This document shows positions 18,787 to 49,063 of a stretch of 64,000 bases of DNA, one piece after another (the first letter of the stretch is position 1; each line of letters opens with the position of its first letter). The notes under the pieces are model-generated. The model was not told the DNA's origin. It searched no databases and saw nothing but the letters and a program-made list of their open reading frames with translations. The translations under genes were made by a program, and so were the position numbers. Origin of the DNA: Treponemataceae bacterium (lineage in GTDB: Bacteria > Spirochaetota > Spirochaetia > Treponematales > Rectinemataceae); contig CAXXHO010000005.1 of assembly GCA_963667725.2 (NCBI GenBank), positions 96,001-160,000 of the forward strand, in the 5' to 3' direction.

Positions 18787-18790
18787 TTCC

Positions 18791-26501: not shown

Positions 26502-26574
26502 AATGCCGGCTCGTCGACGTTGGTCCTCGCCCATCGAGGTCATGACCCAACGGCGGCGCGATTCGCAAGACCGC

Positions 26575-26865: not shown

Positions 26866-26913
26866 TGGCGGCGACGCCCGACAGGGAGCGACACACCACT
26901 GTGGGAGCGATTG

Positions 26914-27333
26914 TCAGGTGTGAAACGGGTCCTCGATCCGCACGCCGGCAATGGTTTGGCCGGGATTCAGGTCCTCGGAGAGAATCCGCGCTGCGCCGGC
27001 TCTGCGCGCCGCGGCAACGATCATCGCGTCCCAGAAGCTGATACTCGCTTCGTCCTCGATGCGGAAAGCGGCTGAGATATCGGCCGGTGACGTGTCGATG
27101 CACCACACGGCGTAGCTGTCGACGATCGCCCTGGCCGCTGGTTTCGAAAGGGGCGTAGCGATTTTGCGGGTCACGTTCCCATAGAATTCCTGCAGAACCT
27201 GGATGCTGAGGACCCCGCAGCGCTGAGCCCAAAGGTCGCGGAGGATGTCCCGGGCAGCCTCTCGCTTCCCGCCCGCATCGGAATCATGGGCGTAGATCAG
27301 GACGTTCGTGTCGACGAATGCCTTATCGCTCAT
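26914..27333 (-). CDS. PIN-domain (VapC-like) toxin
   Basis: FVDTNVLIYAHD, QVLQEFY, SFWDAMIVAAA and ILSEDL motifs. Confidence 0.9.
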   Translation of the reverse strand: MSDKAFVDTNVLIYAHDSDAGGKREAARDILRDLWAQRCGVLSIQVLQEFYGNVTRKIATPLSKPAARAIVDSYAVWCIDTSPADISAAFRIEDEASISFWDAMIVAAARRAGAARILSEDLNPGQTIAGVRIEDPFHT

Positions 27334-27540
27334 GCCACTCGTCCCGGCTGGCGGTGATGCGCCCTCCCAGAGGGTATCCCCGATCGAGCAGGGCCAGGGC
27401 GGAGCGCTCCGCGCACTCCCAGCGCTCTTCGGCGCCAACCAATCGCTCGATCTGTTCGGCCAGCAGACCGCTGATCGAAGTGGATCGACGGGCGGCGAGC
27501 ATCCGGAAATATCGGCGCGTTTTGGCTGAATGTGATTCCG
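27323..27540 (-). pseudogene. CopG/RHH-like antitoxin of the PIN module, 5' end apparently disrupted
   Basis: MLAARRSTSISGLLAEQIERLV...SRDEWHER overlaps the PIN start; a plausible beta-strand segment (ITFS) lies in a different frame upstream. Confidence 0.55.
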
Positions 27541-27710
27541 CCGCGGCGTACCACGGCGGCACAGAGCAAGCGGTGGGTACATCGGACGGGCGTAACGCAG
27601 GTTGGATATGACAAGTTTGCGGATAAAGTCCGGCTTGCGCTGGAGGGCCAGCCGGAGTCCAGGCCACGAGTAGCCGGTGTACCTGAACCGGCTGGCCTAT
27701 GGGGATGTAT

Positions 27711-28076
27711 CTAGGAAGTTGGCGACCCGAGATCGAGGACGATTCTCAGCGCTTCATTCGTCTTGAGTAAGGTTTCCGCTTTCACTTCGCCGTAGACCTT
27801 GCCCAGGCGAGATTCGTCGACGGTTCGGAGTTGGTGACAGGCGGCGTAACTGTCTTTTGGGAGGCCGGCCTCCCCTTTTTTGATCAATACGTAGGTGGGA
27901 CCTGGTTTTTTGACGTTCTCGCTGCCCGTGATCGGCGCGACAATCGTGACCTGCGAATGCCGGTTCAGCAAATCACTTTGCACAACGAGGCAGGGCCGGG
28001 TCTTCATGTATTCCCGGCCTTTACTGGGGTCCAGATTTACGTCGATGACAAAACCCCGCTTACAGTCGCTTTGCAT
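27711..28076 (-). CDS. MazF/PemK family endoribonuclease toxin
   Basis: KRG..IDVNLDPSKGRE..KTRPCLVVQSD, VAPIT, GLPKDS and QLRTVDESRL motifs. Confidence 0.92.
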   Translation of the reverse strand: MQSDCKRGFVIDVNLDPSKGREYMKTRPCLVVQSDLLNRHSQVTIVAPITGSENVKKPGPTYVLIKKGEAGLPKDSYAACHQLRTVDESRLGKVYGEVKAETLLKTNEALRIVLDLGSPTS

Positions 28077-28378
28077 CAGAACTCAGGCGCCTCTGCGTCC
28101 ACGTGGCGGAAATCTTCCACGAGTCGCCGGTCCAACTCCGCGTTAGCGGCGAAGCTGTCCGCAATCTCGCGTTCGAGTTTGGCGCGGTTTCGCCTTTGCA
28201 GGAACTCCTCCACAGCCGATCGGATCAGGTGACTCCGATTGATCGACAACTCGCGTGCGGCCCGATCTGTCGCATCGAACAAAGGCGCGGGAAAATCAGC
28301 AACCACTTTCCGAGTGGAGGGCCGGCGGATTGCGGTGGCAGGCACGCTGTGTCTCCTCTTCCTGGCAGCACCCATCAT
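28076..28378 (-). CDS. Ribbon-helix-helix (CopG/NdoAI-like) antitoxin
   Basis: DRAARELSINRSHLIRSAVEEFL; stop overlaps the toxin start; GAGGGG upstream on the minus strand. Confidence 0.85.
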   Translation of the reverse strand: MMGAARKRRHSVPATAIRRPSTRKVVADFPAPLFDATDRAARELSINRSHLIRSAVEEFLQRRNRAKLEREIADSFAANAELDRRLVEDFRHVDAEAPEF

Positions 28379-28722
28379 ATATCCCCTCATATTCTAGTGT
28401 AAACCATTCTCCCTTATCTTCTATATGCCACCAAAGCATAGAAAACTCATTAGCAGTATGGCTTTACGCTATGTAACCTATTGAAAGGACAGTTCCATGA
28501 TCTGCTCTGGAGCGTCCTGCGTGGCTCGATCGAATATCTGGTTCTGCCGTGGTTCATGCCGGCTCCGGACTACGGGCAAGTTCGTCCGCGCGAGTTTGGC
28601 GTATCTCAGCCGTCGGGAGAAACGGCCACTTGGGCTCCGGCTGGCCGCGGCTCAGTTCAAGGATGAGCAGACGCCCCTTGTGTTTGGGCAGTGCAGAGGA
28701 ACCCGACGTGCTTATCTGAAAC

Positions 28723-30000
28723 ATGCTTATGATGTCCTCAGCTTCTACCCTTTCTTGTTCCCAACAACTTGCCTCTCGAATTCAGGCGAAGACCGCCCGC
28801 GTGGGCATCGTGGGCTTAGGCTATGTCGGCTTGCCTCTCGCCGTTGAGTTCGCCAAGGCGGGCTTCACCGTCACCGGGATTGACGTTCAGGAGAACAAGG
28901 TCGCCGGAATCAACGCCGGCCGTTCTCACGTGCAGGATATCGCCGGCGATGAATTGGCGGGTCTGGTCGGTGCCGGGAAGATCTCGGCAACGACTGATTT
29001 TTCCGTAGTTTCCGAGTTGGACACAATCAACATCTGCGTCCCAACCCCGCTGCGCAAGACCAAAGATCCTGACATGAGCTTCATCGTGTCTGCATGCGAA
29101 GCCATCCAGAAGCACCTGCACCCTGGCATGCTGATCACCTTGGAATCCACCACATACCCGGGCACGACTGAAGAGCTATTGCTGCCCATGCTCGAAGCCG
29201 GATCGGGGCTGAAAGTCGGGCAGGATTTCTTCCTGTGCTTTTCGCCCGAGCGTGTCGATCCGGGCAATCCGCGATACCAAACTGCGAACATCCCGAAGGT
29301 CGTCGGCGGAACTACGGCCGAGTGCACCCGCCTGGGCGTTCTGTTCTATTCGCAGGCGCTACAGACCGTCGTGCCGGTGACTTCCACGCAGGTCGCCGAG
29401 ATGGTGAAGCTGCTCGAAAACACCTTCCGAATGATCAACATCGGGCTGGTCAACGAAATGGCCTTGATGTGCGATCGCATGGGCATCAACGTGTGGGAAG
29501 TGATCGACGCCGCGGCCACGAAGCCATTCGGATACATGCCCTTCTACCCAGGCCCCGGCCTCGGTGGCCACTGCATCCCCATCGACCCGTTCTATCTTTC
29601 CTGGAAGACCAAGCAAGCCGGCATCGAAGCCCGATTCATCGAACTGGCTGGCTACATCAACGGACAGATGCCCCATTTCGTCGTCGACAAGGTCCAGAAC
29701 GCGCTCAACGACTGCGGCAAGGCCCTCAAGGGATCCCATGTCCACGTGCTCGGAGTGGCCTATAAGCGCGATATCGACGATCTTCGCGAGTCGCCTGCCT
29801 TGGACGTCATGCACCTGCTCCAAATGAAGGGCGCACGGGTCACCTATAGCGATCCATACGTGCCCTCGCTCAAGCTGGATGGGTTTGGGGAATGGCGTTC
29901 GGTCGATGCGGAGCAAGCTGCGGCGGAAGCCGATTGCGTTGTGATCGTGACCGACCATGCGCAGGTGAATTACCAGCGCATCGCGGCCGTCTCCCACCTG
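28723..30000 (+). CDS. UDP-N-acetylhexosamine 6-dehydrogenase (WecC/WbpA/TviB family), C-terminus cut at the junction
   Basis: GLGYVGLPLA, CVPTP, ESTTYPGTT, SPERVDPG, KLLENTFR, GGHCIPIDP, YKRDIDDLRESP and VTDH motifs; the expected final VDTRN segment is missing. Confidence 0.9.
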
Positions 30001-30981
30001 GGCGGTGCCCATCAGTGTCTCGCGTCGGGGATCCTTAGGCCCAAGCATCGCTGAGACGATGAAAAGGCAGCGGGCCCGGCTGAGGTTCAGGCCGTCCAGG
30101 TGAACAATCTTGGGGTCCATGCGATCCGAAACCTTGGCGGGGGAGAGCAAACCATCCTTCAGGAGCTCCGGGAGAAAGCCCGTTATCCAGGTGCGGAACT
30201 CCGCTTTCGGGAGCAGTTTGCCCATGAGGGCGGCTTCCTCCAGGCAGGCGGACAGGAAATCCTCGCCACCGGGCTCCCAGGTGATGGGACAGGCGCGGTC
30301 TGCGCCGAAGTACGTGCGCGCCCGCTCGGCGATGAGCGTTTCCAGTCGGTTATCCCGGGTCACCCGGGCGTAGTCCAGGGCCAGCGAGAGGCTGAAGGCC
30401 GTGTTGGGATGAACACCCGTGCGGATCGGGTAGGTCTGCTTGGGCAGGAAATCCAGAAAGGCCGCAGTCACCCGGTTTGCCAAGGGCTGAAGGTTGGCGG
30501 ACCAGCGACGGGCCTCGGGCGCATCCCAGGCCCTCAATTCTGCTGCGAGTTTGAGCAGCCAGGCCCAGCCGTAGGTGCGCTCGAAGCTCTTGCGGTCCGG
30601 CTGCCCGAAATAGGCCACCTCCGCCGCGATGCGCTCCGGGGCCAGATTCTCGTCCAGCACGGCCCGAATCTCCTTGGCCTCCGGCAGCTCGGGGAACTCC
30701 CGGAGCAGCTTCACCAGCATCCAGTGTCCATGCACCGAGGAATGCCAGTCAAAGCAACCGTAGAAGGCCGGATGCAGAGCCTTGGGCCCCTGCACATCGC
30801 CTGGGCCACTCATGACATGGTCCATCTTGTTGGGATATTCCTTGCGCACGCACTTCAAGGCCATCTTGGCGAAGTGGGAGGCGCCAGTCGTGTCCAGGGT
30901 CAGCCCGGCCTCTGGAGTCGCCGCCTGCAGCGTCAGCACCAGTGCCGCACATGCCATGACTCTCCACGTCGATCGAACCAT
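30001..30981 (-). CDS. DUF2891 family secreted protein, C-terminus cut at the junction
   Basis: Signal peptide; EYPNK, HPAFYGCFDWHSSVHGHW, FERTYGWAW, RTGVHPNTAF and HLDGLNLSRA motifs. Confidence 0.85.
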
Positions 30982-31059
30982 CGAACCCCCCTGTATTCCA
31001 GGATTGTAGGTGCAGCGCCCTCCCAGCGAGAGGACGAATCCTGATACACTGTCCCCCCT

Positions 31060-31149
31060 GGAGAGATGGCCGAGTGGTTGAAGGCGCCTGACTCGAAATC
31101 AGGTTTACGGGTGACCGTAACTGGGGTTCGAATCCCTATCTCTCCGCCA
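31060..31149 (+). tRNA. tRNA-Ser (anticodon CGA)
   Basis: GGAGAGA/TCTCTCC acceptor stem, anticodon arm CCTGA-CTCGAAA-TCAGG, long variable arm, GTTCGAATCC T-loop, encoded G-CCA end. Confidence 0.96.
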
Positions 31150-31158
31150 GTTTGACTC

Positions 31159-31181
31159 AAGCCGCCTCTGGGCGGCTTTTT
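31159..31181 (+). terminator. Intrinsic terminator after tRNA-Ser
   Basis: AAGCCGCC-TCTG-GGCGGCTT followed by a T run. Confidence 0.8.
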
Positions 31182-31200
31182 GGCGGGGCTGGGTTGGACT

Positions 31201-31584
31201 CTATTCTTTTTTCCGAATGCCCAGGTGGGTATGGATTTCGTCTTCCACTTGATCCAGGTTGGTGGCGTTGTAGCGCACGAGATTCTTGAGGTGCTCGTAG
31301 CTTTCCAGGCCGTCGATCTTGTCGAACTCGATGGCGATGCCTTCTGAGTAGAGTCGCGCGACGCGCCCCCTTGCCCGGATTTCCACGGCGCCATGATCGA
31401 GGTGGAGTGTGACTTCGCATGGGGTGTCCAGGGGCAGTCGCTGGGCCGTCAGCACCAGGGTACCCTTCATGCTGACATTCTGGGTTTCTGCGCGGACGAC
31501 GCTTCCCTCGGGAGTCTCCACGCTCACCTGAACCCCCGCGAGGACGCGGGTGAATTCTCGATGGGTCGGGTGCTCATCACTCAT
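31201..31584 (-). CDS. PilZ domain protein
   Basis: HREFTRV (RxxxR) and NVSMKG (D/NxSxxG) motifs; GGAGG RBS on the minus strand. Confidence 0.85.
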   Translation of the reverse strand: MSDEHPTHREFTRVLAGVQVSVETPEGSVVRAETQNVSMKGTLVLTAQRLPLDTPCEVTLHLDHGAVEIRARGRVARLYSEGIAIEFDKIDGLESYEHLKNLVRYNATNLDQVEDEIHTHLGIRKKE

Positions 31585-31805
31585 CGTGCGCCTCCACGAT
31601 AAAGGATCATCCTGGACCCGAATGCGGCAGCTTTCATCCGGAAGATGGAAAAAAGAGTTTTGCAACGGAAAGAGACGGGTGGGTTCAGGCCACGCCGGGT
31701 GCCCCCTGATGGAACTTCCTGGTACCCTCGTGCCATGAGGTCTCCGGGGCGTGGCCCCGGGGTCCACAGAATTGCCTGACCCAAGTTCCCCTTCGGAGGC
31801 CTGCC

Positions 31806-33254
31806 GTGGAAAACCTTCTCGACAATCTGGAGCCCAAACTGCTCTGGAACTACTTCTTTGAACTCTCCAAGATCCCTCGCGGATCCAAGGTGGAGGCCGA
31901 GGCCGCCAAGTGGGTGGCCGATCAGGGTCGCGCGTTGGGCCTTGAGGTGTCCCAGGATGCCGTGGGCAACGTGCTCATCCGCAAGCCCGGCACCAAGGGC
32001 AAGGAGAACCTCCCTGGCGTGTGCCTGCAGGCCCACGTGGACATGGTGTGTGAGAAGAACGAGGGCACCCAGCACGATTTCCTCAAGGATCCCATCAAGC
32101 TGCGCCGGGACGGCAACAACCTGTACGCCACGGGCACAACCCTGGGTGCGGATAACGGCATCGGCGTGGCGGCTGGGCTGGCGGTGATGGCCAGCAAGGA
32201 CATCGCCCATGGGCCCGTGGAGCTGCTGGTCACCATCGACGAAGAGACGGGCCTGACGGGCGCCAACAACATTCAGCCAAACTGGCTGAAGGCCAAGTAC
32301 CTGCTCAACCTCGATAGCGAGGAGGAGGGCTACCTCACCATCGGCTGCGCCGGTGGCGTGGACACCATCACCACCCGCAAGCTCACCCTGGCTGCCCCCA
32401 GTGCGGGCAAGAAGGCCTATCGTCTGAAGGTCTTTGGCCTCAGGGGCGGCCATTCCGGCATCGACATCAACTCGGGCCGGGGCAATGCCATTCGTCTCCT
32501 GGCCCAGGTGCTCAATGCCACGCTGCCGGAGTTCGCCTTCGAGCTGTCTGCGGTCAAAGGCGGCAACAAGCGCAACGCCATACCTCGCGAGGCTTCGGCT
32601 TATCTCTACATGGATTCGGCCAAGGAAGGTGCCTTCAAGGCCGAGCTGGCCAAGCACGAGGCCCACTGGAAGGCGGCTCTCGGCGCCTTCGACCCTGGAT
32701 TCTCACTGAGCCTGGAAGCGGGGACGGAAGACAAGGTCATGTCCAAGGAGGATGCCCTCTGCCTCATCGGCCTGCTGCTGGCCCTGCCTCATGGCGTCGA
32801 GGCCATGAGCCCCGACATCCCTGGACTGGTGCAGACTTCCACCAACATCGGTGTCATTGATACCAAGGATGGTCTGGTGGAAGTGAACCTGCTCACCCGC
32901 AGCTCCATCGACCCTTCCAAGAACGCATTGGCTGAGCGCATTGCCGCCATCTGCGCCCTGGCGAAGTTCGAATCCCACCTGGTGGGCGGCTATCCCGGCT
33001 GGAAGCCCGAGCCCAAGGCCTCCATCGTGAAGCTTGTGGATGGCGTGCAGGAACAGCTCTTCGGCCAGCCCATGAAGATCATGGCGATCCACGCAGGCCT
33101 GGAATGCGGCCTCATCGGCGAGAAATATCCCGGCATGGAGATGGCCTCCATCGGCCCCGATATGTGGGATGTGCACACACCCGATGAGCACGTGAGCATT
33201 CCCTCTGTGGGCAATTTCTGGAAGCTCCTGACAGCCGTGCTCGAGAAGATCTGA
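31806..33254 (+). CDS. pepD: Aminoacyl-histidine dipeptidase (peptidase D, M20C)
   Basis: LQAHVDMVCEKN, TLGADNGIG, DEETGL, LNLDSEE, GGHSG, IHAGLECG and VHTPDE motifs. Confidence 0.93.
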   Translation: MENLLDNLEPKLLWNYFFELSKIPRGSKVEAEAAKWVADQGRALGLEVSQDAVGNVLIRKPGTKGKENLPGVCLQAHVDMVCEKNEGTQHDFLKDPIKLRRDGNNLYATGTTLGADNGIGVAAGLAVMASKDIAHGPVELLVTIDEETGLTGANNIQPNWLKAKYLLNLDSEEEGYLTIGCAGGVDTITTRKLTLAAPSAGKKAYRLKVFGLRGGHSGIDINSGRGNAIRLLAQVLNATLPEFAFELSAVKGGNKRNAIPREASAYLYMDSAKEGAFKAELAKHEAHWKAALGAFDPGFSLSLEAGTEDKVMSKEDALCLIGLLLALPHGVEAMSPDIPGLVQTSTNIGVIDTKDGLVEVNLLTRSSIDPSKNALAERIAAICALAKFESHLVGGYPGWKPEPKASIVKLVDGVQEQLFGQPMKIMAIHAGLECGLIGEKYPGMEMASIGPDMWDVHTPDEHVSIPSVGNFWKLLTAVLEKI

Positions 33255-33266
33255 TCTTCAACTTGT

Positions 33267-33365
33267 AAAGATCCACCACCAAGACGCCAAGAACACCGAG
33301 ACGCACCAAGAGAATGATCCAGCTTGGTGACGTTCGAGTTCTTCGTGCCTTGGTGGTGGATCTTT
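33267..33365. repeat. Palindromic intergenic element with perfect 17-bp terminal inverted repeat (REP-like or terminator)
   Basis: AAAGATCCACCACCAAG (33267-33283) pairs with CTTGGTGGTGGATCTTT (33349-33365); internal CCAAG/CTTGG repeats. Confidence 0.75.
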
Positions 33366-33492
33366 TTTGTTCGGTTTTCGTGATCGCTGTGATGCCCATC
33401 ATCCCTTGATTTTTAGCCGTTCTTGCGGCTTGACGGGCAGGGCCTCGAGGCGGGATCCTGCGGCGGATGTTCCTCTGCACAGAAGGGTCCCG

Positions 33493-35409
33493 ATGCTTGA
33501 GCGCCTGGATTACGAAGCCGTAGGTCTCATCTCCGGTCTGGAGGTGCATCAGCAGCTGCTCACCAAACACAAGCTGTTCTGCCGCTGCCCTGCGGGCCTC
33601 TACACCGAGACGCACGATGGCGAGGTACTGCGGCACATGCGGCCCACGCTCTCGGAACTGGGCGAGTACGACGGCACGGCCCTCATGGAGTTCAAGACGA
33701 AGAAGGAGATCATCTACCTCCTGAACCACCTGAACGTCTGTACTTACGAGATGGACGACACGCCGCCCTTTCTCGTGAATCAGGAGGCCATCGACGCCTC
33801 CATCGAGCTCTGCCTGATGATGGGCATGGACATCATCGACGAGATCCACATCGCCCGAAAACAGTACTTGGACGGCTCCATTCCTACGGGCTTCCAGCGC
33901 ACGGCCATCATCGGCGTGAATGGCACCATCCCCTTTCATGGTCGTCCCCTCACCATCACCCATGTGAGCGTGGAGGAGGACTCCTGCCGCGAGGTGCGGG
34001 ACAAAGGCCACCAGATCGTGTGGCGCACGGATCGGCTGGGCATGCCGCTCACGGAGACCGTGACCGGACCCGAGCTGCGCACGCCCCAGGAGGTGCGCGA
34101 TGCGATTCTGCTTTGCGGCATGACCGCCCGCTCCACCGGGCGCGTGCGCACGGGCATCGGCGCCAGTCGTCAGGACGTGAACGTCAGTGTGCGCGGCGGG
34201 GATCGCGTGGAGATCAAGGGCGTGCCTCGCGCAGGCTACGCCGTGAAGCTGGTACACAACGAGGGCGTGCGGCAACACAACCTGCTCAAGCTGCGTGATG
34301 AACTGCATCGCCGCGGGCTCTCGACACGTGAATCCATCCGGGTGCAAGCCTTCGATGTCTCCGATATCTGCGCGGACGTGGATCTAGGCTTTCTGCGGCG
34401 CTCCATGGGGGCGGGCGGCAAGGTCTTCGCGGTGAAGGTGGAAGGCGTGGCGGGGCTCGCCCAGCATCCCACTCAGCCCGATACGACTTTCCTGGATGAA
34501 CTGAGCGGTCGCATCCGGGTCATCGCCTGCCTGGACGAGGCGCCCATCGTGCTGAGCGGGGCCATGCTGCCGGAGTTCCCCAACAAGCACCGCCTGTTGG
34601 AGCGGCTTCGCAAGCGGGTTCACCTCACCGAGAACGATGATTTCTTTTTGGTGTTTGGCCCCGAGGAGGATTGCCGTACGGCGGCCAACGAGATCCGCCT
34701 GCGCTTCGCCGATGCTACCCAGGGCGTGCCCAAGGAAACCCGCCAGGCGCTTACGGGGGGCTTCACGACCTTCGAGCGCATCCTGCCAGGGCCGGACCGC
34801 ATGTATCCGGATACGGATTCCCCGCCCACCCGCGTGACCGAAGATCGCGTGGCCTCCATCAAGGCTCGACTGCGGCCCGCGCCCTGGGAACGCATCGAAC
34901 GCTACATGTCCTGGCGGGTGCCCGAAGAGACCTGCCATTACCTCATCCGCCGAGGCGGTGCAGAGATCCTGGATGCCGTCATCGAAAAGACCGGCGTGGA
35001 TGGCCTGGTGGCGGCCATGGTGATCGGTCAGCACAGCAAGGCGCTGAAGCGCGCAGGCATTCCGGTGGAGCGCCTGGGCACTGCCGAATGGGTGCAGATC
35101 TTCGATCTCTTCACCGATGGGCGCATTCCCCGGGAAACCATCCCGTTGGTGGCGACGGGTGTGGCCCGGGATGGGCTCAGTGCCCAGGCGGCGGCAGCAG
35201 CAGCGGGTGTAGCCGTGCAGCCCCGGGAGCGGTGGCTGTCCACGGTGGATCAGTTGACCATGGAGGGCTATCAGGGCGAGAAGGTGGATACCCAAGACAA
35301 GCGTCTGCGCTTCCTGGCGGGCCGGGCCATGGAACAACTGCTGGGCAAGGCTCCCGCCAAAGAAGTTGCGGAGTACCTGCGAAGCAAGCTCGTGGAGGTG
35401 TCCCGATGA
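33493..35409 (+). CDS. gatE: Glu-tRNA(Gln) amidotransferase subunit E (archaeal-type)
   Basis: GLEVHQQL..KLFCRC, DGSIPTGFQRTA, VEEDS, DRLGMPLTE, RQDVNVS, RVEIKGV, a large central insertion, GVPKETR and RMYPDTDSPP. Confidence 0.9.
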   Translation: MLERLDYEAVGLISGLEVHQQLLTKHKLFCRCPAGLYTETHDGEVLRHMRPTLSELGEYDGTALMEFKTKKEIIYLLNHLNVCTYEMDDTPPFLVNQEAIDASIELCLMMGMDIIDEIHIARKQYLDGSIPTGFQRTAIIGVNGTIPFHGRPLTITHVSVEEDSCREVRDKGHQIVWRTDRLGMPLTETVTGPELRTPQEVRDAILLCGMTARSTGRVRTGIGASRQDVNVSVRGGDRVEIKGVPRAGYAVKLVHNEGVRQHNLLKLRDELHRRGLSTRESIRVQAFDVSDICADVDLGFLRRSMGAGGKVFAVKVEGVAGLAQHPTQPDTTFLDELSGRIRVIACLDEAPIVLSGAMLPEFPNKHRLLERLRKRVHLTENDDFFLVFGPEEDCRTAANEIRLRFADATQGVPKETRQALTGGFTTFERILPGPDRMYPDTDSPPTRVTEDRVASIKARLRPAPWERIERYMSWRVPEETCHYLIRRGGAEILDAVIEKTGVDGLVAAMVIGQHSKALKRAGIPVERLGTAEWVQIFDLFTDGRIPRETIPLVATGVARDGLSAQAAAAAAGVAVQPRERWLSTVDQLTMEGYQGEKVDTQDKRLRFLAGRAMEQLLGKAPAKEVAEYLRSKLVEVSR

Positions 35410-36842
35410 GCGCCCCTGTGATCCCCATCAGCGAGCGCACGGATCGCTTCCAGGGCTATCGTGGCCTGGCCAAGGCCGCGCTGGAGAAATTCGAGATCGG
35501 CGTGTGGAGCGAAGTCGAGATCGTGAATGACGAGGGCTCCGCCTTCGTGGGCGTCATCCTGCCCCGCAGCGAGACCGCCGACGATCTGCACGTGGTGATC
35601 AAGCTCTTCAACGGCTACAACGTGGGCATCCACGCCAATCGCATCGCCTCCGCCAAGGAGCACGGCTACAAGAAGGCGGTCTACAAGATTCCCGAACAGG
35701 CCTTCCCCTTCGATCCCAAGAAGAAGAACGTCACGCTGCTGGGCACGGGCGGCACTATCGCCAGCCGCCTGGACTACCGCACCGGCGCGGTGATTCCGGC
35801 CTTTACGCCCGGCGAGTTGTACGGCGCTGTGCCGGAGCTGGCCGACATCGCCAATCTCACCACCAAGAAGCTCTTCGGCGTCTTCTCCGAAAACATGGGC
35901 CCCGAGCAGTACAAGGCCCTGGCCATCGCCATTGGCGAGGAGATCGAGAAGGGCGTGGATGGCATCGTCATCGGCCACGGCACCGACACCATGAGCCACA
36001 CGGGCGCCATCCTCAGCTTCATGGTGCAGGACAGTCCCGTGCCCATCGTGATCGTGGGCAGTCAGCGCAGCTCAGACCGGCCTTCCTCTGATGCGGCTCT
36101 GAACTTGATGAATGCGGTTCGCACCGCCGCCGAATGCGACATCGCCGAGGTGATGCTCTGCATGTTTGGTCCCACCTCGGATAACTACGATCTGCTGCAC
36201 CGGGGCACCCGCTGCCGCAAGATGCACAGCAGCTATCGCAGCACCTTCCGCACCATTGGCGCCACGCCCCTTGCCACCGTGAGTCGCTACCCCAAGGAAG
36301 TAGGCGGCAGCCACTTCACCTACATCTCCGAGGACATCCGCAAGCGGGACCGGACGCGAAAGCCCATCATCAACCCCTCCTTCGAGGAGAAGGTGACGAT
36401 CCAGTACTACTATCCCAACTTCAACCCCGACATCATTGATGGTCTCTCGGCCATGGGCTATCGCGGCCTGGTGATGGCGGGCACAGGGTTGGGCCATGTG
36501 AACAAGCCGCTCTATCCGGCCATCAAACGGGCCATCCAGAAGGGCATGACCGTGGTGATGTGCGTCCAGACGCTCTGGGGCTTCGCCCAGATGTACGTCT
36601 ACGACACGGGCCGCGATCTGTTGGACCTGGGTATCATTCCCCTCGACAACATGCTGCCCGAGACCGCCTACATGAAGCTGGCCTGGGTGCTGGGACAGAC
36701 TGATGATCCCAAGAAAATTCGGGAAATGATGACCACGGCCATCAATCATGAGATCGAGCAGCGGGAGCCTCACAACGGCTATCTCATCCTTCAGGGTGGT
36801 CTGCCCGAAGTGGACGCCTTCGTGGAGAAGCACTGGAAGTAA
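35406..36842 (+). CDS. gatD: Glu-tRNA(Gln) amidotransferase subunit D (archaeal-type)
   Basis: N-terminal GVILP..IKLFNGYNVGI domain, GTGGTIASRLDYRTGAV, HGTDTM, GSQRSSDRPSSDA, KMHSSYRSTF, GTGLGH and MLPETAYMKL; ATGA overlap with gatE. Confidence 0.92.
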   Translation: MSAPVIPISERTDRFQGYRGLAKAALEKFEIGVWSEVEIVNDEGSAFVGVILPRSETADDLHVVIKLFNGYNVGIHANRIASAKEHGYKKAVYKIPEQAFPFDPKKKNVTLLGTGGTIASRLDYRTGAVIPAFTPGELYGAVPELADIANLTTKKLFGVFSENMGPEQYKALAIAIGEEIEKGVDGIVIGHGTDTMSHTGAILSFMVQDSPVPIVIVGSQRSSDRPSSDAALNLMNAVRTAAECDIAEVMLCMFGPTSDNYDLLHRGTRCRKMHSSYRSTFRTIGATPLATVSRYPKEVGGSHFTYISEDIRKRDRTRKPIINPSFEEKVTIQYYYPNFNPDIIDGLSAMGYRGLVMAGTGLGHVNKPLYPAIKRAIQKGMTVVMCVQTLWGFAQMYVYDTGRDLLDLGIIPLDNMLPETAYMKLAWVLGQTDDPKKIREMMTTAINHEIEQREPHNGYLILQGGLPEVDAFVEKHWK

Positions 36843-36861
36843 TCGTTGTGCTGCAGACTGA

Positions 36862-37233
36862 TCAGGGGCCTTCCAGCACTTCCTGAACGGCCTGCAGGAG
36901 ATCGGCCCGGGATACGGGCTTGCGCAGAACCTTGGCGGCTCCCAGGCGCTGGGCGGGCCTCAGGAGGTCCATCCCGATCCCGGGGCCGCCTCCAGAAATG
37001 GCGATCACGCGCATTTCCGGGTATTGGGTTCGCACCTCCATGATGAGCTCGATCCCATCTTTTTCAGGCATGAAGATGTCGGTGATCAGCACATCGAAGG
37101 TGCCAGCCTGCAGACATTTCATGGCGGCCAGACCGTTGGGGGCCGTCACAACCTGGTGCCCGTTGCCCTCCAGGATTTCGGTCAAAAGCGTGCGGATCGC
37201 GAGGTTGTCATCGGCGACCAGGAAGCGAGGCAT
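36862..37233 (-). CDS. Single-domain (CheY-like) response regulator
   Basis: LVADD, LITDIFMPEKDG, ISGG and LRKP motifs. Confidence 0.92.
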   Translation of the reverse strand: MPRFLVADDNLAIRTLLTEILEGNGHQVVTAPNGLAAMKCLQAGTFDVLITDIFMPEKDGIELIMEVRTQYPEMRVIAISGGGPGIGMDLLRPAQRLGAAKVLRKPVSRADLLQAVQEVLEGP

Positions 37234-39932
37234 CAGGTTCTCCCGGTTTGTGCTTCATCGAGGGTTTGGCGCAGGGCGTGGGCGAGGCTGGGGAGGGGCA
37301 GAGGTTTCTTCAGCAGGTTGGCGAAGCCCTGTTCTCGGGCCTTGGCTTCGTCGAGTTCTTCGCTGAAGCCTGTCATGAGCAGGACCGGGAATCCGGGGCG
37401 GAGTTTCCAGATACCAGTGCCCAGGTCTTGACCCGTGAGGCCGGGCATCGAGAAGTCGGTCATCACCAGATCGTAGCTCTCTGGGTTCGCCTGAAAGGCG
37501 CTCAGGGCCTCTTGGCTGTCCTGGAAGACCGAGACGCGGTACCCCAGCAGGCCGAGGGCCTCGCCGAGCATCTGGCCGATGGGCCTTTCGTCATCCACGA
37601 CGAGGATGCGCTCGTGGCCCCTGGCTGCTTTCTCTTGGCGAAAAGGGCTGGTGGGCTCCGGCCTCAGCGCGATGGGCAAGTACACGGTGAAGGTGCTTCC
37701 GCGTCCCACTTCGCTCTCCAGCTGGATGCCGCCGTCGCAGCCCGTGACGATTCCGTGCACGATGGAAAGGCCGAGGCCGGTGCCCTCTCCAATTCGTTTG
37801 GTCGTGAAGAAGGGTAGAAAGACTTGCTTCTGGGTCTCTGGGCTCATGCCGCAGCCCGTATCCGAGACGCTCAGACGGATGTAGTCTCCGGGAGGAAGAT
37901 CACCTCCGATGGCCTGCACAGGCACCGTAGGGCACACCCGATCAAGGCGCACACCGAGCCTTCCACCGGATTCGCGCATGGCGTGGTACCCGTTGGTGCA
38001 CAGGTTCATTACCACCTGATGGATCTGACTGGGATCCACCAGCACTGGACCACACTGCTCATCCACATGGGCCTCGATGGAGATGTTCGCAGGGATGGCG
38101 GCCCGCATGAGTTTGAGGCACTCCTTCACCAGGGGGTGCAGTTCCACGGCCTGCTTGTCCTGCTCCATCTGGCGGCCGAACAACAGGATCTGGCTCACCA
38201 GATCCGCCGCGCGACGACCGGCGCCATGAATTTCTTCCAGGTAGCTGGTGAGTTTCGGCTGATCCGTTGTGACGAGATCCTGGGCCAATTCTGCGAACCC
38301 CAGGATCGGCATGAGGAGATTGTTGAAGTCGTGGGCGATGCCGCCGGCAAGCACGCCGATGGCTTCCATCCTCTGGGAGTGACGCAGCTGGTTCTCCAGT
38401 TCCGCTTCCCGGGTCACATCCCGGGAGGTCAGCACCACGTATTGGACGGCGCCCTCATCGTCCCGCACGGGGGAGAGCGTGGTGTCGGTATGCCCCGTGG
38501 TGCCATCCCCACGACGGTGGCTCATGCGCCCAGTGGAGGATTGCCCTGCGACGACCTCTTGCCAGCGCTCACGATAGAGCTTCTCGTCGCTCTCGCCAAA
38601 ATTGAGGGTGGCGATCCTCTGGCCGTGGATCATGGGCTGGGGCAGGCCCAGTAGTTTTTCGGTGGCGGGGTTGGCGTAGAGCACCGTTCCTTCGATGTCT
38701 GTGACCAGGATGGAATCGGAGGCCTGTTCGATGGCGGTGGAGAGGCGCTTCAGCTCGGCCTCGGCCTGCTTGATGGAGGTGATATCGCGGAAGATGCCCA
38801 GGGCCCCCAGAAACTGCCCCTGATCATCCGTGTGGGGGGTCACTGTGACCAGCACCTGCCGACGCTCGCCGTTGGGCCGAATGAAGCCCATTTCGTAGGT
38901 GCTGTTGCTCCCGATTTTTCGTTTCAGGGTCTCGTCCTGGAGCTTCTGGAAGTCCCGGGCATCGGTGAATTCGGAAAGACAGCGGCCCAGGAGTTCGGCG
39001 CGGGGTCGCCCGAGAATTCCTTCTGCGGCGCGGTTCATGAAGAGAATCCGCTCATCGTCGTCCACATAACCCACGCCTTCCCCCTGGTTTTCCACCAGAA
39101 GTCGGTAGCGCTCCTCGCTGTTCTTCAGGGCGGCTTCGGATTCAAGGCGTTGAGTGATGTCCCGCAGGGTGCCGAGAACCGCCCACTGCCCGGCGAAGGG
39201 GATCTTGCTGATGCTGAGCTCCACAAAAAGCACTGCCCCGCACTTGTGGATGATGCGGGCGTTGTAGCGGGGAGGCACATCCTCGCCCCGCACCCGCCGG
39301 TAGGCGTTGTCCTTTACCTTGGCCCGCTCTTCGGGGTGGACCAGGGACCAGGGGTCCATGGCGTAGAGTTCGTCCAGGGAATAGCCCACGATGCCTGTGG
39401 CCCTGGGGTTGATGAAGTGGAACCGGTCGGTTCCGATGATGAAGATGCCGTCGTGGCTGTGGTCCACCAAGGCCCGGTACATGGCTTCCCGCTCTCGAAG
39501 CGCCTCCTCGGCGGTCTTGCGCTCCTGGATATTCCGGAGTACGCCGTTCACCTGGGCCAACGCGCCGTCGATGTGGAGGGGTTCGCTGTACTCTTCGTAC
39601 CACTCGTAGTGCCCATCCTGGTGGCGCAGGCGACACTCCACTCGGTCATGGGGAATGCCCTGGAGATTCAAGCGGAAGGCAGCCTCTACGGCATCGTGGT
39701 CCTCGGGATGAACGAATTCGAGGATATGGCGACCAACGGCGAAATCCGGTTCGTATCCCAGGCTCCGCGCGCTTTCACTGACAAAGAGCAGGATGCCATC
39801 GGGCCCATAGGAAACGATGATGTCCCGAATATGTTCGACGAGGGTTTGGAACCTGGCCTCGTCTCCGGGCGAGCCTTGCGTTGACCGCTTCCGAGCGGGG
39901 CCTGCGGGCGGAGTCGGGTGGTCCGTGGTCAT
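37233..39932 (-). CDS. Multi-PAS hybrid sensor histidine kinase with C-terminal receiver
   Basis: Four PAS repeats, [11 protein letters not shown]-box, NLCTNG, DTGCGM, PFFTTK, GTGLGL and receiver VMTDFSMP; start uncertain (39932 or 39980). Confidence 0.92.
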
Positions 39933-39982
39933 GGTTTCGAGTGTAAGCCTTTGCTTGGTTCCGGTCGCAGGGGGCTTCAAAG

Positions 39983-40009
39983 CGATCGGCCCCGTGAAGG
40001 GGCCGATCG
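39983..40009. terminator. GC-rich hairpin downstream of the lipoprotein gene
   Basis: CGATCGGCCCC-GTGAA-GGGGCCGATCG perfect 11-bp stem; short T tract on the minus strand. Confidence 0.55.
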
Positions 40010-40030
40010 GAGGGCTGGAACCTATTGATG

Positions 40031-40627
40031 CTAGGGCTGCGCGGGCTTGTAGTCGTCGGCGTAGGTGATGGGGGACTTCTGGGTGGCTTCCTTCATCAGC
40101 TGCTCGAAGATCTTGGCCTCCTGGCGCTGCTTCCAGAGCATGGGCATCTGGGCCTTGACCTGCTCGAAGGGGGGCACTCCCTTGTCCTGGCCCTGGGCCT
40201 TGCGCTCCGCCAGGAGTTCATCGTAGGTGGCCTTGAGGTCGGCCTCGGTGGGCTGGGCCTTGAGGCGGCGCTCCATCAGCGTCTGGACGTAGGCCTGTGC
40301 CGTTGCCTGCTCAAGGCGCAGGAGTACGCCGGGGTCCTTGTCCAGACCCTGGGCTTTACCCAGGATGACGATGGCCTTGGCCTTGGCCAATTGGCCCAGG
40401 AACTCGTTACGCTTGTCCCGGAGCGCTTCGCTGGTGAGGACTTCCTTGGCCTTGGCTTCATCGGGAACCATGGCTTTGATCGTTTCGCCAAAGGCCTTCT
40501 CCGTGATCTTTTCACCGGCAACGCTGGCGATGACTTTGCTGGTGTCCTTGGAGCCTTTATTGCAGCCCAGGGCGACCACCAGGGCCAGACCCGCCATTCC
40601 CAGCCAATGTGCACGACGAAGCTTCAT
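40031..40627 (-). CDS. PrsA/EpsD-like lipoprotein (chaperone domain, no parvulin core visible)
   Basis: Lipobox VALGC, VIASVAGEKIT, GLDKDP, PTEADLKATY and PPFEQVK; GAGGAG RBS. Confidence 0.65.
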   Translation of the reverse strand: MKLRRAHWLGMAGLALVVALGCNKGSKDTSKVIASVAGEKITEKAFGETIKAMVPDEAKAKEVLTSEALRDKRNEFLGQLAKAKAIVILGKAQGLDKDPGVLLRLEQATAQAYVQTLMERRLKAQPTEADLKATYDELLAERKAQGQDKGVPPFEQVKAQMPMLWKQRQEAKIFEQLMKEATQKSPITYADDYKPAQP

Positions 40628-40694
40628 TTCGTTCTCCTCGATTCCCATGTCCCAGACTGACTGGGCGTGACATCCAATCCTAACCGGAGGAAAC

Positions 40695-40991
40695 ATGCCC
40701 GACCTCAGCCTTCTGAATGGACTCCAGCTCCAGGTCTATTCGGCCACCTGGTGCGGCGACTGTCGCCGCCTGGAGCGATGGCTGGGGGAGAACGCCGTAC
40801 CCTTCACCAAAGTGGATATTGAACGGGTGGCGGGCGCCGCCGAGCAACTGGAGGCCGAGACGGGCAAACGGGCGATTCCGTTCATTCGGGTCAACGGGAG
40901 GCGCTGGGTGCGGGGCTACCACCGAGACCTGCCCGGCCGCTTCAACCCCGAGCTGCTGGTCCAGGAGTTGGCGGAGGCTGGGAAGGGCTAA
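40695..40991 (+). CDS. Glutaredoxin/mycoredoxin-like protein
   Basis: VYSATWCGDC and TGKRAIPFI motifs; GGAGG RBS. Confidence 0.85.
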   Translation: MPDLSLLNGLQLQVYSATWCGDCRRLERWLGENAVPFTKVDIERVAGAAEQLEAETGKRAIPFIRVNGRRWVRGYHRDLPGRFNPELLVQELAEAGKG

Positions 40992-41085
40992 GCCCCGCAG
41001 GAGATCTTTTCGCGGCACGAAGGGCCGCGAACCTGTCCAAGGAGGCGGATCCGTGGAAAACTAGGGGGTTCCCTCGGAGCCTGCC

Positions 41086-42129
41086 TTGTCCCATCCCTTT
41101 TCATCCCAATTCTGGTCTGGCCTTTTTACCAGCGATCTTGCGATCGATCTGGGCACGGCCTCTGTGCTGGTCTACACCCGCCAGGCGGGGCGTATCGTGA
41201 TCTACGAACCATCCATCGTTGCCCTGAACACCCAGACGCACGAGGTGGAGGCCGTGGGCGATGAGGCCAAGCAACTGCTGGGCCGCGCTCCCCAGGGGGT
41301 TCAGACCATCCGCCCCATGAAGGACGGCATGATCTACGAGGTGGATGCCGCCGAGAAAATGCTGGCTGCCTTCATCAAGAAGGCCCGGCCCAACCGCGGC
41401 ATCGCCCGCACCCGCATCGTGGTGTCCGTGCCTCCCCGGGCCCACCAGGTGGCGCGCCGGGCGGTGAAGCAGGTCTGCTACGACGCCAAGGCCGGCGAGG
41501 TGTTCCTGGTGGATCAGGCCATGGTGGCCGCCATCGGCGCGGGGCTCGCCATCAACGAGAAGCGCGGCTGCATGATCGTGGACGTGGGCGGCGGCACCAC
41601 GGATGTGGCGGTGATCTCGTACAACGGCAAGGTCTTCTCCGACTCCATCCTGATTGCGGGCGATGAGATGGACGAGGCGATCATCAAGTACATCCGCGAG
41701 AAGTACAACGTGCTCATCTCGGAATCCGCAGCCGAGGAAGTGAAGTGGAACCTGGGTTCGGCCTATCCCTCCGATAAGCCTCGCACCATGAACATCTCGG
41801 GCCGGGACCAGTTCGAGGGTCTGCCCAAGACGCTGGTGCTGAACGACACCGAGATCCGCGAGGCGCTCTCGGAGCCCATCAGCGCCATCATCGATCTGGT
41901 TCGCAAGGCCTTGAACGAAACCCCGCCTCAGTTGGCGGCGGATCTCATCGACCGCGGCATCTGCCTGACCGGCGGCGGCTCCAAGATCCAGGGGCTGGAT
42001 GTGCGGCTCTCCAAGGAAACGCACCTGCCCTGCTACCGGGCCGAAAACCCCGAGACGGCCGTGGTGCGCGGCACGGCCGTGCTGCTGGATGATATCCCCT
42101 TCCTGCGGCGCATTCAGATTCTCGACTAA
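41086..42129 (+). CDS. mreB: Rod shape-determining protein MreB (divergent)
   Basis: IDLGTA, EPSIVA, IRPMKDG, AAIGAGL, VDVGGGTTDVAVIS, AGDEMD and LTGGG motifs; first gene of the mre operon. Confidence 0.92.
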   Translation: MSHPFSSQFWSGLFTSDLAIDLGTASVLVYTRQAGRIVIYEPSIVALNTQTHEVEAVGDEAKQLLGRAPQGVQTIRPMKDGMIYEVDAAEKMLAAFIKKARPNRGIARTRIVVSVPPRAHQVARRAVKQVCYDAKAGEVFLVDQAMVAAIGAGLAINEKRGCMIVDVGGGTTDVAVISYNGKVFSDSILIAGDEMDEAIIKYIREKYNVLISESAAEEVKWNLGSAYPSDKPRTMNISGRDQFEGLPKTLVLNDTEIREALSEPISAIIDLVRKALNETPPQLAADLIDRGICLTGGGSKIQGLDVRLSKETHLPCYRAENPETAVVRGTAVLLDDIPFLRRIQILD

Positions 42130-42143
42130 GAAGAGGAGCACCG

Positions 42144-43019
42144 ATGCGGGAGCGCCCCTGGGGCTGGAACCCTTCCGGTCGCAGACGCTGGGGCATTGTC
42201 GCCCTCTGTCTCGGGCACCTGCTGTGGGTCTTCCTGGGCCGAGGGGCGGCAACGCGCTGGCAGAACCTGCTGGGGCTGCTCTCCCGCCCCTCTCAGACGG
42301 TAAGCGCCCGGTTCGAGGCCTGGCGGCAGGCGCGAACCCAGCGAATCGCGGATCATCAGCGGGCCCTGGCCGAGGTGCAGATGCTGCGGCAGCGGGTGGA
42401 ATACCTGCAGATGGCCGCCATCCAGAACGCCCAGAAGAACAGTGAGGCCGACGAGGCCGTGCGGTTGCTGGGACTCAAGCAGGCTTTCCCCCTGGAAACC
42501 CGGGGGGCCAGGATCATCGCCAACCTCCGGCGCGCGCCTTTCGGGGGGTTGGTGTTGGACTGCGGCGCAGATGCGGGGATCAATCCCGATCAGGGCGTCA
42601 TCTGTCCCGAGGGCGTGGTGGGACGAGTCTGGTCCGTGACCCAGGGGCAGGCCAGTGTGCTTCCCTTGGACTCCTTCAACGCATCTGCGGCCGTGATGCT
42701 GGCGCGCAGTCGGGCCACTGGGGTGCTGCAGGGCGTGGGGCCGGGCAAGGCGGAGATCCGCTATATCAGCAGCCAGGAGGTGGTGCAGGTGGGTGAGCCC
42801 GTCTATACCTCGGGCCTGGACCGGGTCTTCCCCCGGGGACTCCTGGTGGGGTACGTCACCGCCGCCAGACCCAGGGATGCCGAACTGGCCCTGGAAGTGA
42901 CCCTGGCCGCACCCCTCGACCGGACCCACCTGGTTCTCCTCATGCCTCCCAAGCCCCCGATCCAGGTGCAGCCCCCCTCTGAGCCCGTGGCGGGCCTTGG
43001 GCAGCGAGGCGTGAAATGA
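42144..43019 (+). CDS. mreC: Rod shape-determining protein MreC
   Basis: TM plus coiled coil, GVVGRV and VYTSGLDRVFPRGLLVG; synteny. Confidence 0.9.
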   Translation: MRERPWGWNPSGRRRWGIVALCLGHLLWVFLGRGAATRWQNLLGLLSRPSQTVSARFEAWRQARTQRIADHQRALAEVQMLRQRVEYLQMAAIQNAQKNSEADEAVRLLGLKQAFPLETRGARIIANLRRAPFGGLVLDCGADAGINPDQGVICPEGVVGRVWSVTQGQASVLPLDSFNASAAVMLARSRATGVLQGVGPGKAEIRYISSQEVVQVGEPVYTSGLDRVFPRGLLVGYVTAARPRDAELALEVTLAAPLDRTHLVLLMPPKPPIQVQPPSEPVAGLGQRGVK

Positions 43020-43498
43020 GCGGCAACGCCAACTCGCCCATGTTCCGGCATCTGCTGTTCGCTTGCCTGACCCTGGGAGGCGTCTATTTCGCGGCCCCCT
43101 GGCCCGCCGTCCAGGCGGTGCTCAATGCGTTCCTGGTTCTAGGGTTGGCACCGGAGTTCCGCTCGCCCCTGGTTGGGGCCTGCTGGGCCGCCGCCGCCGG
43201 TTGGGTGCTGGAAGGCGCCATGCGGGCCTACCCCCAACTGGGAGGCACAGCCCTGGGGAATCTCCTGGCCATGCTCCTGGCGGCCTGGGTGCTGACGCAA
43301 TGGCCGCCGAGCCAGCGCCGGGCCTTCTGGATTCGGCTCGCGGCCCTGGCTGTCATCCATGCCCTGCTGGTCCATGCCGCCGTGCGCATCGCCTGCGGGC
43401 CGCACCCCTGGGGCTGGGGGCCCCTCTGGACGCTCCTCACGGTGCCCCTGTGGGGGTCGGTGGCTTTCAGGCTTCACCGTCCCCTCCATCGGAGGTAG
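43016..43498 (+). CDS. Membrane protein, probable MreD
   Basis: About 160 aa, fully hydrophobic, between mreC and mrdA; weak sequence resemblance. Confidence 0.65.
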   Translation: MSGNANSPMFRHLLFACLTLGGVYFAAPWPAVQAVLNAFLVLGLAPEFRSPLVGACWAAAAGWVLEGAMRAYPQLGGTALGNLLAMLLAAWVLTQWPPSQRRAFWIRLAALAVIHALLVHAAVRIACGPHPWGWGPLWTLLTVPLWGSVAFRLHRPLHRR

Positions 43499-43501
43499 GC
43501 C

Positions 43502-45391: not shown

Positions 45392-49063
<3,672 letters not shown>

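Follow-up and report, generated by a model that had tools for sequence, protein, structure and literature searches.

An intact gatE-gatD operon of a large bacterial GatDE clade, on DNA most likely mis-joined into a spirochaete-like contig

How does an amidotransferase of the archaeal type come to stand in a bacterial chromosome, to which organism does it belong, and on which aminoacyl-tRNA would it act? These questions are raised by a gatE-gatD gene pair in a stretch of 64,000 nucleotides (the window) from Treponemataceae bacterium, which corresponds to positions 96,001 to 160,000 of the forward strand of contig CAXXHO010000005.1 (here C5) in GenBank assembly GCA_963667725.2. An earlier, sequence-only reading had described the pair as an intact archaeal-type GatDE operon among bacterial neighbours, and had proposed an old interdomain transfer providing an archaeal route to Gln-tRNA, or a repurposed enzyme. 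Its premise, that GatDE is described as specific to archaea, is borne out by the literature: passages in reviews up to 2022 call GatDE archaea-only, and arguments on the last universal common ancestor and on the co-evolution of tRNA(Gln) are built on that view (PMC9499178, PMC8007984), while full-text searches returned no paper on bacterial GatDE, as judged from titles and the openings of abstracts. As predicted from its sequence, the locus is an intact two-gene operon for a tRNA-dependent amidotransferase of a bacterial GatDE clade; it is an ordinary member of that very large and well-conserved clade, and the DNA that carries it most likely comes from an organism other than the bulk of the assembly. 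The two genes are the following.

33493 to 35409, + strand: gatE, 638 amino acids, with a GatB/GatE cradle domain that holds a GatE-type insertion, and a C-terminal YqeY-like tail.
35406 to 36842, + strand: gatD, 478 amino acids, with the GatD N-terminal domain and two asparaginase-type domains.

Both reading frames are intact and of full length, at exactly the positions first proposed, and the ATG of gatD overlaps the TGA of gatE in the tetranucleotide ATGA, in agreement with translational coupling. The translation of GatD contains GTGGTIASRLDY, GHGTDT and GSQRSSDRPSSD, and that of GatE contains EVHQQL, LDGSIPTGFQRT, ARKQYLDGSIP and DRMYPDTD, so that every motif quoted in the sequence-only reading is present. 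Family profiles separate the pair from its nearest look-alikes. GatE scores 494.1 bits against the NCBIfam equivalog NF003107 (cut-off 456) and 432.2 bits against TIGR00134 (cut-off 319.55), whereas with all six GatB models it stays far below the cut-offs (51-135 bits, where 315-680 would be needed), the highest score being 134.7 bits for a cut-off of 338. GatD scores 480.3 bits against NF003217 (cut-off 310) and 475.5 bits against TIGR02153 (cut-off 324). The likeness of GatD to type I L-asparaginases is real, as its core exceeds the cut-off of the corresponding subfamily model TIGR00519 (357 bits, cut-off 260.5) and solved asparaginases are matched at E values of about 1e-35, but GatD scores about 120 bits more against its own equivalogs, carries the GatD N-terminal domain and has a gene translationally coupled to gatE. 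No grouping with GatB or with plain asparaginases, the outcome that would have spoken against the assignment, was seen in this comparison.

Domain and structure matches agree with the profiles. Pfam recognizes GatD_N (PF18195, residues 34-80), Asparaginase and Asparaginase_C in GatD, and GatB_N (residues 14-453) and GatB_Yqey (residues 493-633) in GatE; since the GatB_N model has 277 positions, the span of residues 14-453 indicates that the GatE insertion is present. The closest solved structures are those of the archaeal GatDE of Methanothermobacter thermautotrophicus (2D6F) and Pyrococcus abyssi (1ZQ1). Each alignment to them consists of a single stretch: residues 1-637 of GatE pair with 4-631 of 1zq1_C (E = 4.7e-100) and residues 5-635 with 1-617 of 2d6f_C (E = 1.2e-92), and GatD aligns over its full length with 2d6f_A (E = 1.7e-109) and 1zq1_A (E = 1.2e-105). 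The GTGGTIAS, HGTDT and RKMH stretches of GatD, which we take to hold the asparaginase-type catalytic Thr, Thr-Asp and Lys, are identical in both alignments, and the HQQL, GFQRT and EED stretches of GatE are conserved with respect to the solved archaeal chains. The architecture of GatE appears complete, comprising a cradle with the large insertion, a helical part and the C-terminal tail. In general, the same two subunits, the full-length domain order and the catalytic stretches are shared with archaeal GatDE, but the identity of the window GatE to archaeal-named GatE clusters is only about 30-38%. With bacterial GatCAB the pair shares the cradle and the YqeY-like tail (GatB_N and GatB_Yqey in both GatB and GatE) as well as the chemistry; it differs in the large insertion of GatE, in the scores of GatE below the GatB cut-offs, and in the asparaginase-type partner GatD, which stands in place of GatA and GatC. 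On these matches the pair is genuine GatE and GatD, neither GatB nor a plain asparaginase.

That such a pair should be unusual in bacteria, as had been supposed, does not hold. A protein search with GatE returned at least 120 clusters, with 76-99% identity among the matches listed and with names that include GatE of Holophaga, Acidobacteria, Thermoanaerobaculia, Planctomycetes and others; an exhaustive search gave 624 clusters (50% identity level) at E≤1e-30. In a collection with one genome per species at least 593 stretches matched, of which at least 551 were confirmed as encoding relatives, and bacterial copies are already labelled GatE by NCBI and JGI. The 79 related loci that we retained from this collection for locus comparisons belong to Acidobacteriota, Planctomycetota, Gemmatimonadota, Myxococcota, Ignavibacteriota, Bacteroidota, Chlorobiota and Aminicenantes. 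The closest of them (L032) encodes a GatE 99% identical to that of the window and lies in the closed chromosome of an 'uncultured Holophaga sp.' (G050; 3,501,072 bp). In 68 full-length GatE proteins of related loci, identity reaches 97% or more at 180 positions. This conservation is unevenly spread along the protein: in the near clade (52 proteins) the catalytic domain is 90% identical and the tail 58%, in the far clade (16 proteins) 65% and 18%, respectively. The tail domain of archaeal GatE reads the D-loop of the tRNA; because this domain diverges far more than the catalytic one, tRNA recognition by bacterial GatE may have shifted.

The origin of the bacterial copies was approached with a quick maximum-likelihood tree (IQ-TREE, LG+C20, SH-aLRT support only), rooted on GatB, of 92 rows: the window GatE, 71 full-length representatives thinned from the 150 clusters listed, 16 bacterial GatE from named loci and 4 GatB as outgroup. 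Among the clusters with names, P0164 is from Heimdallarchaeota, P0177 from Ignisphaera, P0180 from Acidilobaceae and P0185 from Parvarchaeota, while P0129, P0131 and P0151 are bacterial; P0177 and P0180 fall outside the thinned set. All 16 named bacterial GatE fall in one clade, which also holds the window protein (support 99, 48 rows; names are at hand for few rows, and the six most basal rows of this 'bacterial' clade carry none). Its sister is the Heimdallarchaeota (Asgard) cluster, with support 97, the remaining archaeal-type rows lie outside it, and GatB roots outside all GatE. This topology fits the old interdomain transfer of the sequence-only reading, more precisely a single old transfer that would have gone from archaea to bacteria and was followed by spread among bacteria. 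The 76-79% identity of GatE with Planctomycetota-labelled proteins suggests later transfer between bacterial phyla.

The second question, that of the host, turns on a single point of the window.

30000 to 30001, no strand: breakpoint, at which homology to G050 ends exactly (contig position 126001).

From window position 30001 onward, C5 126001-189283 (63,283 bp) is colinear with G050 1533640-1603787 at 86-95% DNA identity. mreBCD and PBP2, both bacterial, lie within the same colinear block as gatED, and the same synteny in a closed 3.50-Mb 'Holophaga sp.' chromosome supports a bacterial, chromosomal context for the pair. The likeness is confined to this block. G050 was compared with the assembly by means of eighteen 20-kb stretches: twelve samples from elsewhere in G050 gave no megablast match of at least 500 bp, except for one of 770 bp at 73%, and the flanking samples examined gave only short blastn matches at 65-73% identity. 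G050 matches all 20 kb of window 30001-50000 at 87-90%, while of two genomes assigned to the same genus as the assembly one (G001) shows there only two DNA matches of about 80-90 nucleotides and the other (G002) none. The bulk of the assembly looks spirochaete-like, judging by its proteins: relatives of its GlnRS at 77-97% carry the names Spirochaetales, Rectinema, Rectinemataceae and Treponema, and the solved structure closest to its GluRS is that of Borrelia. Among 41 relatives of the assembly, GatE was found in only one, the assembly itself. A second mreB-PBP2 cluster, on another contig (C3), is 43% and 29% identical to the copies of the block, and the housekeeping set of the block (mreB, PBP2, RodA-like) is 29-43% identical overall to the assembly's own. 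The G+C content is 0.62-0.67 in the block, about 0.65 in G050 and 0.54-0.59 in the assembly contigs. Each end of the block interrupts genes: at 30000|30001 a nucleotide-sugar dehydrogenase gene (+ strand) and a convergent gene (- strand) both lack their 3' ends, the latter continuing normally in G050, and at C5:189283 an acyltransferase-like gene of about 375 amino acids in G050 is cut to 138 and the next open reading frame has no start.

The join was examined over window 27001-33000 in the Logan contigs of four public runs, two of which (X20 and X22) represent one sample, possibly the source, and two (X1 and X2) independent metagenomes. X20 and X22 contain both sides of 30000|30001 at 0 differences, on separate contigs: one of 920 letters fits 29476-30000 and goes on with 395 unlike letters, and one of 923 letters fits 30001-30586, preceded by 337 unlike letters. 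X1 and X2 hold the right side only, and in X2 the loose end before 30001 reads like the G050 continuation of the cut gene; coverage gaps in these two runs were given weight in combination with the loose ends and the bridging test, never by themselves as absence. No Logan contig bridges the join in any of the four runs. Because the join is unsupported in all four, the block is foreign to the bulk and genes are cut at its ends, the 63-kb block is most likely acidobacterial (Holophagaceae-type) DNA mis-joined into a spirochaete-like contig. Two points weigh on the other side: the G+C content at third codon positions of long open reading frames overlaps (block mean 0.733 vs 0.689, standard deviation 0.085), so that composition was dropped as a proof of foreignness, and the evidence on the join consists of assembled contigs, not raw reads, from one source-like sample and two metagenomes and concerns the left end only. 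The contamination that the sequence-only reading had named as its own refutation is thus present in one respect, as the segment is foreign to the bulk of the assembly and its left join is unsupported by read-derived contigs, and absent in the other, since it is not archaeal; likewise, its bacterial neighbours are confirmed inside the block, whereas what lies left of 30000 is not contiguous with gatED in read-derived contigs.

Could the join nevertheless exist in cells, the block being a real and very recent horizontal acquisition by the spirochaete-like organism? The block does lie inside a contig of 1.37 Mb, and the sequence that follows the left flank in X20 occurs nowhere else in the assembly. 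However, the X20 and X22 contigs pass the breakpoint from both sides into unlike sequence, neither ending there nor bridging it, and their 0 differences from the block are expected if the donor organism was in the sample. Together with the divergent second housekeeping set, the genes cut at both ends and the 6.26% contamination rating of the assembly, these observations make an acquisition highly unlikely.

Other parts of the contig deserve a mention in their own right. The left end of the block sits on a round contig coordinate (126000|126001). The left flank (window 1-30000, G+C 0.60-0.62) carries a polysaccharide-synthesis-like cluster, in which the nucleotide-sugar dehydrogenase has Bryobacteraceae- and Terriglobales-named relatives at no more than 83%; none of G001, G002 and G050 matches window 10001-30000 at the DNA level. 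The first 200 kb of C5, including about 60-126 kb, may contain more than one foreign piece, and the 16 kb at C5 236001-252000, with a G+C of 0.42-0.44 in a background of 0.55-0.60, are probably another foreign island.

Since the block is most likely mis-joined, the gene inventory of the assembly cannot be used for the GatDE host. Taken at face value the assembly contains glnS, asnS, aspS, one gltX, asnA and two asnB-family genes, and neither GatB nor GatA was found in it; the idea that GatDE is the sole amidotransferase of a cell with GlnRS, AsnRS, AsnA and AsnB was rejected, as this inventory belongs to the spirochaete-like bulk. The closest closed genome, G050, has GatB (533 bits), GlnRS (719), AsnRS (624), an AsnB-family protein (478) and one GluRS. 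An even sample of 81 genomes from its family gave GatE over the cut-off in 23, GlnRS in 72 (69 over cut-off) and GatB in 77 (76 over cut-off); within the 23 GatE-positive genomes, GlnRS and GatB were each found in 21. The same inventory was taken in 50 GatDE-bearing genomes behind the 79 loci, chosen before the results were seen. They are metagenome-assembled genomes of unknown completeness, for which a miss does not equal absence. The loci left out were L026, L035, L040, L041, L047, L049, L059, L063, L064, L067, L072, L075, L077, L079, L080, L083, L085, L087, L089, L090, L091, L094, L096, L097, L099 and L101-L104, mostly short contigs or lineages already covered.

GlnRS: matched in 46 of 50 genomes, over cut-off in 42.
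AsnRS: matched in 46 of 50, over cut-off in 45.
GatB: matched in 37 of 50, over cut-off in 36.
AsnB family: matched in 34 of 50, over cut-off in 34.
GluRS: matched in 47 of 50, over cut-off in 47.

In the host lineage GatDE thus comes in addition to GlnRS and GatCAB, as an accessory. The archaeal route to Gln-tRNA of the sequence-only reading is not supported as one that the cell needs, because GatDE bacteria nearly always have GlnRS and mostly have GatCAB; archaea, by contrast, are described in passages of a review as having no GlnRS (PMC9499178), a feature not shared by the 46 genomes above. A second GluRS as a dedicated partner was also considered and rejected as a general explanation: at least two matches occur in 17 of the 50 genomes, and many of the second ones are short. 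As a side observation, glnS and gltX are close neighbours, no more than a few kb apart, in the spirochaete-like bulk of the assembly (C3 1204496-1209327) and also in the Holophaga-like genomes G050, G055 and G046.

What would GatDE do in such a cell? Judging from the homologous archaeal enzymes of known structure, GatD would act as an amidase of the asparaginase type that frees ammonia from glutamine or asparagine. GatE would activate, at the expense of ATP, the side-chain carboxyl group of the glutamate that tRNA(Gln) carries as an ester, and would then amidate it, so that Glu-tRNA(Gln) becomes Gln-tRNA(Gln). Because the host lineage has GlnRS and GatCAB, this would not be the only source of Gln-tRNA in the cell; GatDE would rather serve as a second route, or in the clean-up of Glu-tRNA(Gln). 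To this ordinary chemistry on tRNA(Gln), in an accessory role, we assign a probability of roughly 0.6. The strongest local hint that tRNA(Gln) is the substrate comes from tRNA genes found 60-70 nucleotides upstream of gatE, on the same strand, in 4 of the 79 loci, each followed by a hairpin and a T-run.

L047, 5856 to 5930, strand of gatE: gatE-adjacent tRNA.
L050, 5857 to 5931, strand of gatE: gatE-adjacent tRNA, in a Mesoterricola-labelled metagenome-assembled genome.
L054, 84 to 158, strand of gatE: gatE-adjacent tRNA.
L061, 4188 to 4263, strand of gatE: gatE-adjacent tRNA.

The tRNA of L061 has a CUA anticodon and C37. The other three, all tRNA-Gln(CUG), are paralogs of the housekeeping tRNA in their respective genomes; a compensatory substitution in the anticodon stem sets them apart from it, joined in two cases by G37 in place of A37.

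Several observations weigh against an ordinary accessory role on tRNA(Gln). GatDE is surplus to GlnRS and GatCAB and yet is 70-92% conserved across phyla, so that simple redundancy is no explanation. The Holophaga-like genomes have a single GluRS, which bears on the source of Glu-tRNA(Gln) in the host; the residue equivalent to Arg358 of GluRS is Arg, but it is Arg also in the Borrelia GluRS, so that this marker is uninformative. Finally, archaeal GatDE reads the A1-U72 pair of tRNA-Gln, according to passages of PMC9499178, whereas the tRNA-Gln(CUG) of Holophagaceae has U1-A72. In four GatDE-bearing genomes, a set that does not include the block's own organism, both the housekeeping and the gatE-adjacent copies have U1-A72 and A73.

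The surplus and the strong conservation can also be read as signs that the enzyme was repurposed and now serves an aminoacyl-tRNA that is dedicated to it or lies outside translation, such as a special paralog of tRNA-Gln, a tRNA resembling a suppressor, or one destined for secondary metabolism or the envelope. The tRNA paralogs beside gatE in one sublineage, one of them with the CUA anticodon, are in keeping with this proposal, as is the tail domain, the least conserved part of GatE. We consider it rather unlikely nonetheless: gatE-adjacent tRNAs are confined to the four loci above, the CUA variant with its C37 may be decaying, the window locus and its closest relatives have no tRNA-Gln near gatE, and no conserved third gene accompanies gatED, the commonest neighbour family beyond GatD occurring at 15 of 80 loci and consisting of signalling proteins.

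A change of substrate within translation, in which bacterial GatDE would amidate Asp-tRNA(Asn) and act as a tRNA-dependent asparagine synthase, is distinctly unlikely. It has a model in Deinococcus, Thermus and Bdellovibrio, where, according to PMC4206432, GatCAB stands beside GlnRS and AsnRS and persists for asparagine synthesis. Here too the amidotransferase is surplus to direct charging, and bacterial tRNA-Gln and tRNA-Asn (as seen in spirochaete tRNAs) share U1-A72, so that an enzyme reading a weak first pair might accept both; moreover, at E≤1e-70 the AsnB family gave no match in 16 of the 50 GatDE-bearing genomes. However, at least 12 of these 16 have a GatB over the cut-off, which already does the job, and AsnB is present in 10 of the 13 genomes in which GatB was not matched. 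Only in three (G047, G077 and G085) was neither matched; they are metagenome-assembled genomes in which AsnA was not searched. In contrast to the Deinococcus type, then, it is GatDE that is surplus, most of the genomes having GatCAB as well, and the asparagine role is not required in 47 of 50. The AsnRS, GatB and AsnB-family gene of G050, and the fact that the tRNAs found beside gatE are solely of the Gln type, point the same way. That the genes are a decaying, functionless remnant of the old transfer is very improbable, in spite of their being surplus to known needs and patchy in the family (23 of 81), given two intact frames of full length with all catalytic stretches kept, 76-99% protein identity over the 120 clusters listed and a catalytic domain 90% identical in the near clade.

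An ordinary accessory role on tRNA(Gln) thus remains the preferred reading, and the surroundings of the pair, listed here in order, are compatible with a unit of two genes.

31060 to 31149, + strand: tRNA-Ser(CGA), called by ARAGORN, inside the shared block (context).
31806 to 33254, + strand: pepD-like dipeptidase gene (context), from the list of open reading frames; the name is a reading of the sequence, made without a library scan.
33267 to 33366, + strand: long hairpin with a U-run behind it, downstream of the pepD-like gene and ahead of gatE, from RNA folding.
33430 to 33459, + strand: TTGACG, about 16-18 nucleotides, then GGGATCCT; putative promoter, a motif kept upstream of gatE in relatives (coordinates counted by hand).
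36862 to 37233, - strand: response-regulator gene, convergent on gatD (context), from the list of open reading frames.

The fold of 33262-33375 has an energy of -55.4 kcal/mol (z = -8.1, 0 of 200 shuffles as good); a simple terminator scan did not list the hairpin, whose loop region is long. It is likely the terminator of the upstream gene, in which case gatE-gatD would form its own transcription unit, limited to two genes because of the hairpin and U-run on one side and the convergent response-regulator gene on the other. The TTGACG motif with GGGATCCT is also found upstream of gatE in L027-L030, L032, L034, L036, L037 and L038, with variants in L042 and L043, i.e. in about a dozen related loci overall, which suggests a promoter; a sigma-70 consensus scan of 33100-37300 gave 0 sites. 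A known RNA or riboswitch in the gatE leader was looked for in Rfam (33150-33600, E≤10) and rejected, the only match being a chance one to a microRNA (E = 0.95). A GatD-family gene was called in 71 of 80 gatE-bearing loci. The pepD-like neighbour (cluster c3) occurs in 9 of 80 loci, always directly upstream of gatE and in Holophaga-like loci only; the response-regulator cluster (c2) varies from locus to locus, and the tRNA-Ser(CGA) has an equivalent relative place in L032. In L029, L037, L044, L046, L053, L056, L058, L065 and L067, mostly labelled Vicinamibacterales, a second open reading frame that clusters with GatD lies near gatD, downstream, and may represent either a split gene or another gene of the asparaginase type.

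Some tRNA genes of the spirochaete-like bulk also stand out. A tRNA-Gln(CUG) of the assembly, at C3 534377-534448 and adjoining a tRNA-Glu(CUC), resembles tRNA-Glu in its acceptor stem (U1-A72 followed by C-G pairs; CCCC) and has A73; the tRNA-Gln(UUG) of the assembly is canonical, with G73. The suggestion that this odd tRNA needs GatDE was discarded, since it has some match in 38 of the 41 relatives, most of them 94-100% identical over nearly the full length, and all of these except the assembly itself are without GatE. At C3 337287-364417 and 372899-409648, pairs of tRNA-Ala(CGC) and of tRNA-Thr(CGU) genes with identical 3' halves, 27 kb and 37 kb apart, resemble attachment-site duplications of integrated elements. 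Two over-long ARAGORN calls of tRNA-Ala(CGC), at C3 1083186-1083275 (90 nucleotides) and C4 110399-110480 (82 nucleotides), have poor cloverleaves and are possibly false calls or tRNA-like elements.

As a single locus the window adds little, being one ordinary member of a clade that is already named in databases and was overlooked by reviews. What is new here is its compromised genomic context, the window being a mosaic at 30000|30001: in a mosaic assembly of this kind, the statement that this GatDE host lacks GatCAB would have been wrong. At the level of the clade, a large and well-conserved group of bacterial GatDE that nearly always coexists with GlnRS, with no known need that explains its upkeep, raises a question about redundancy and quality control in tRNA charging. 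A bolder proposal, which we put forward as doubtful, is that bacterial GatDE is no leftover: in hundreds of species selection would keep it as a second Gln-tRNA system in addition to GlnRS and GatCAB, and in some Holophagaceae a separate tRNA-enzyme pair would be forming. If so, GatDE could keep tRNA(Gln) charged through a bypass whenever GlnRS activity or the supply of free glutamine breaks down, or could remove toxic Glu-tRNA(Gln) as a scavenger. Among the Holophagaceae, some would be acquiring a tRNA-Gln paralog for it, including the variant with the CUA anticodon, and GatDE would offer a natural example of a separate tRNA-enzyme pair arising within a bacterium.

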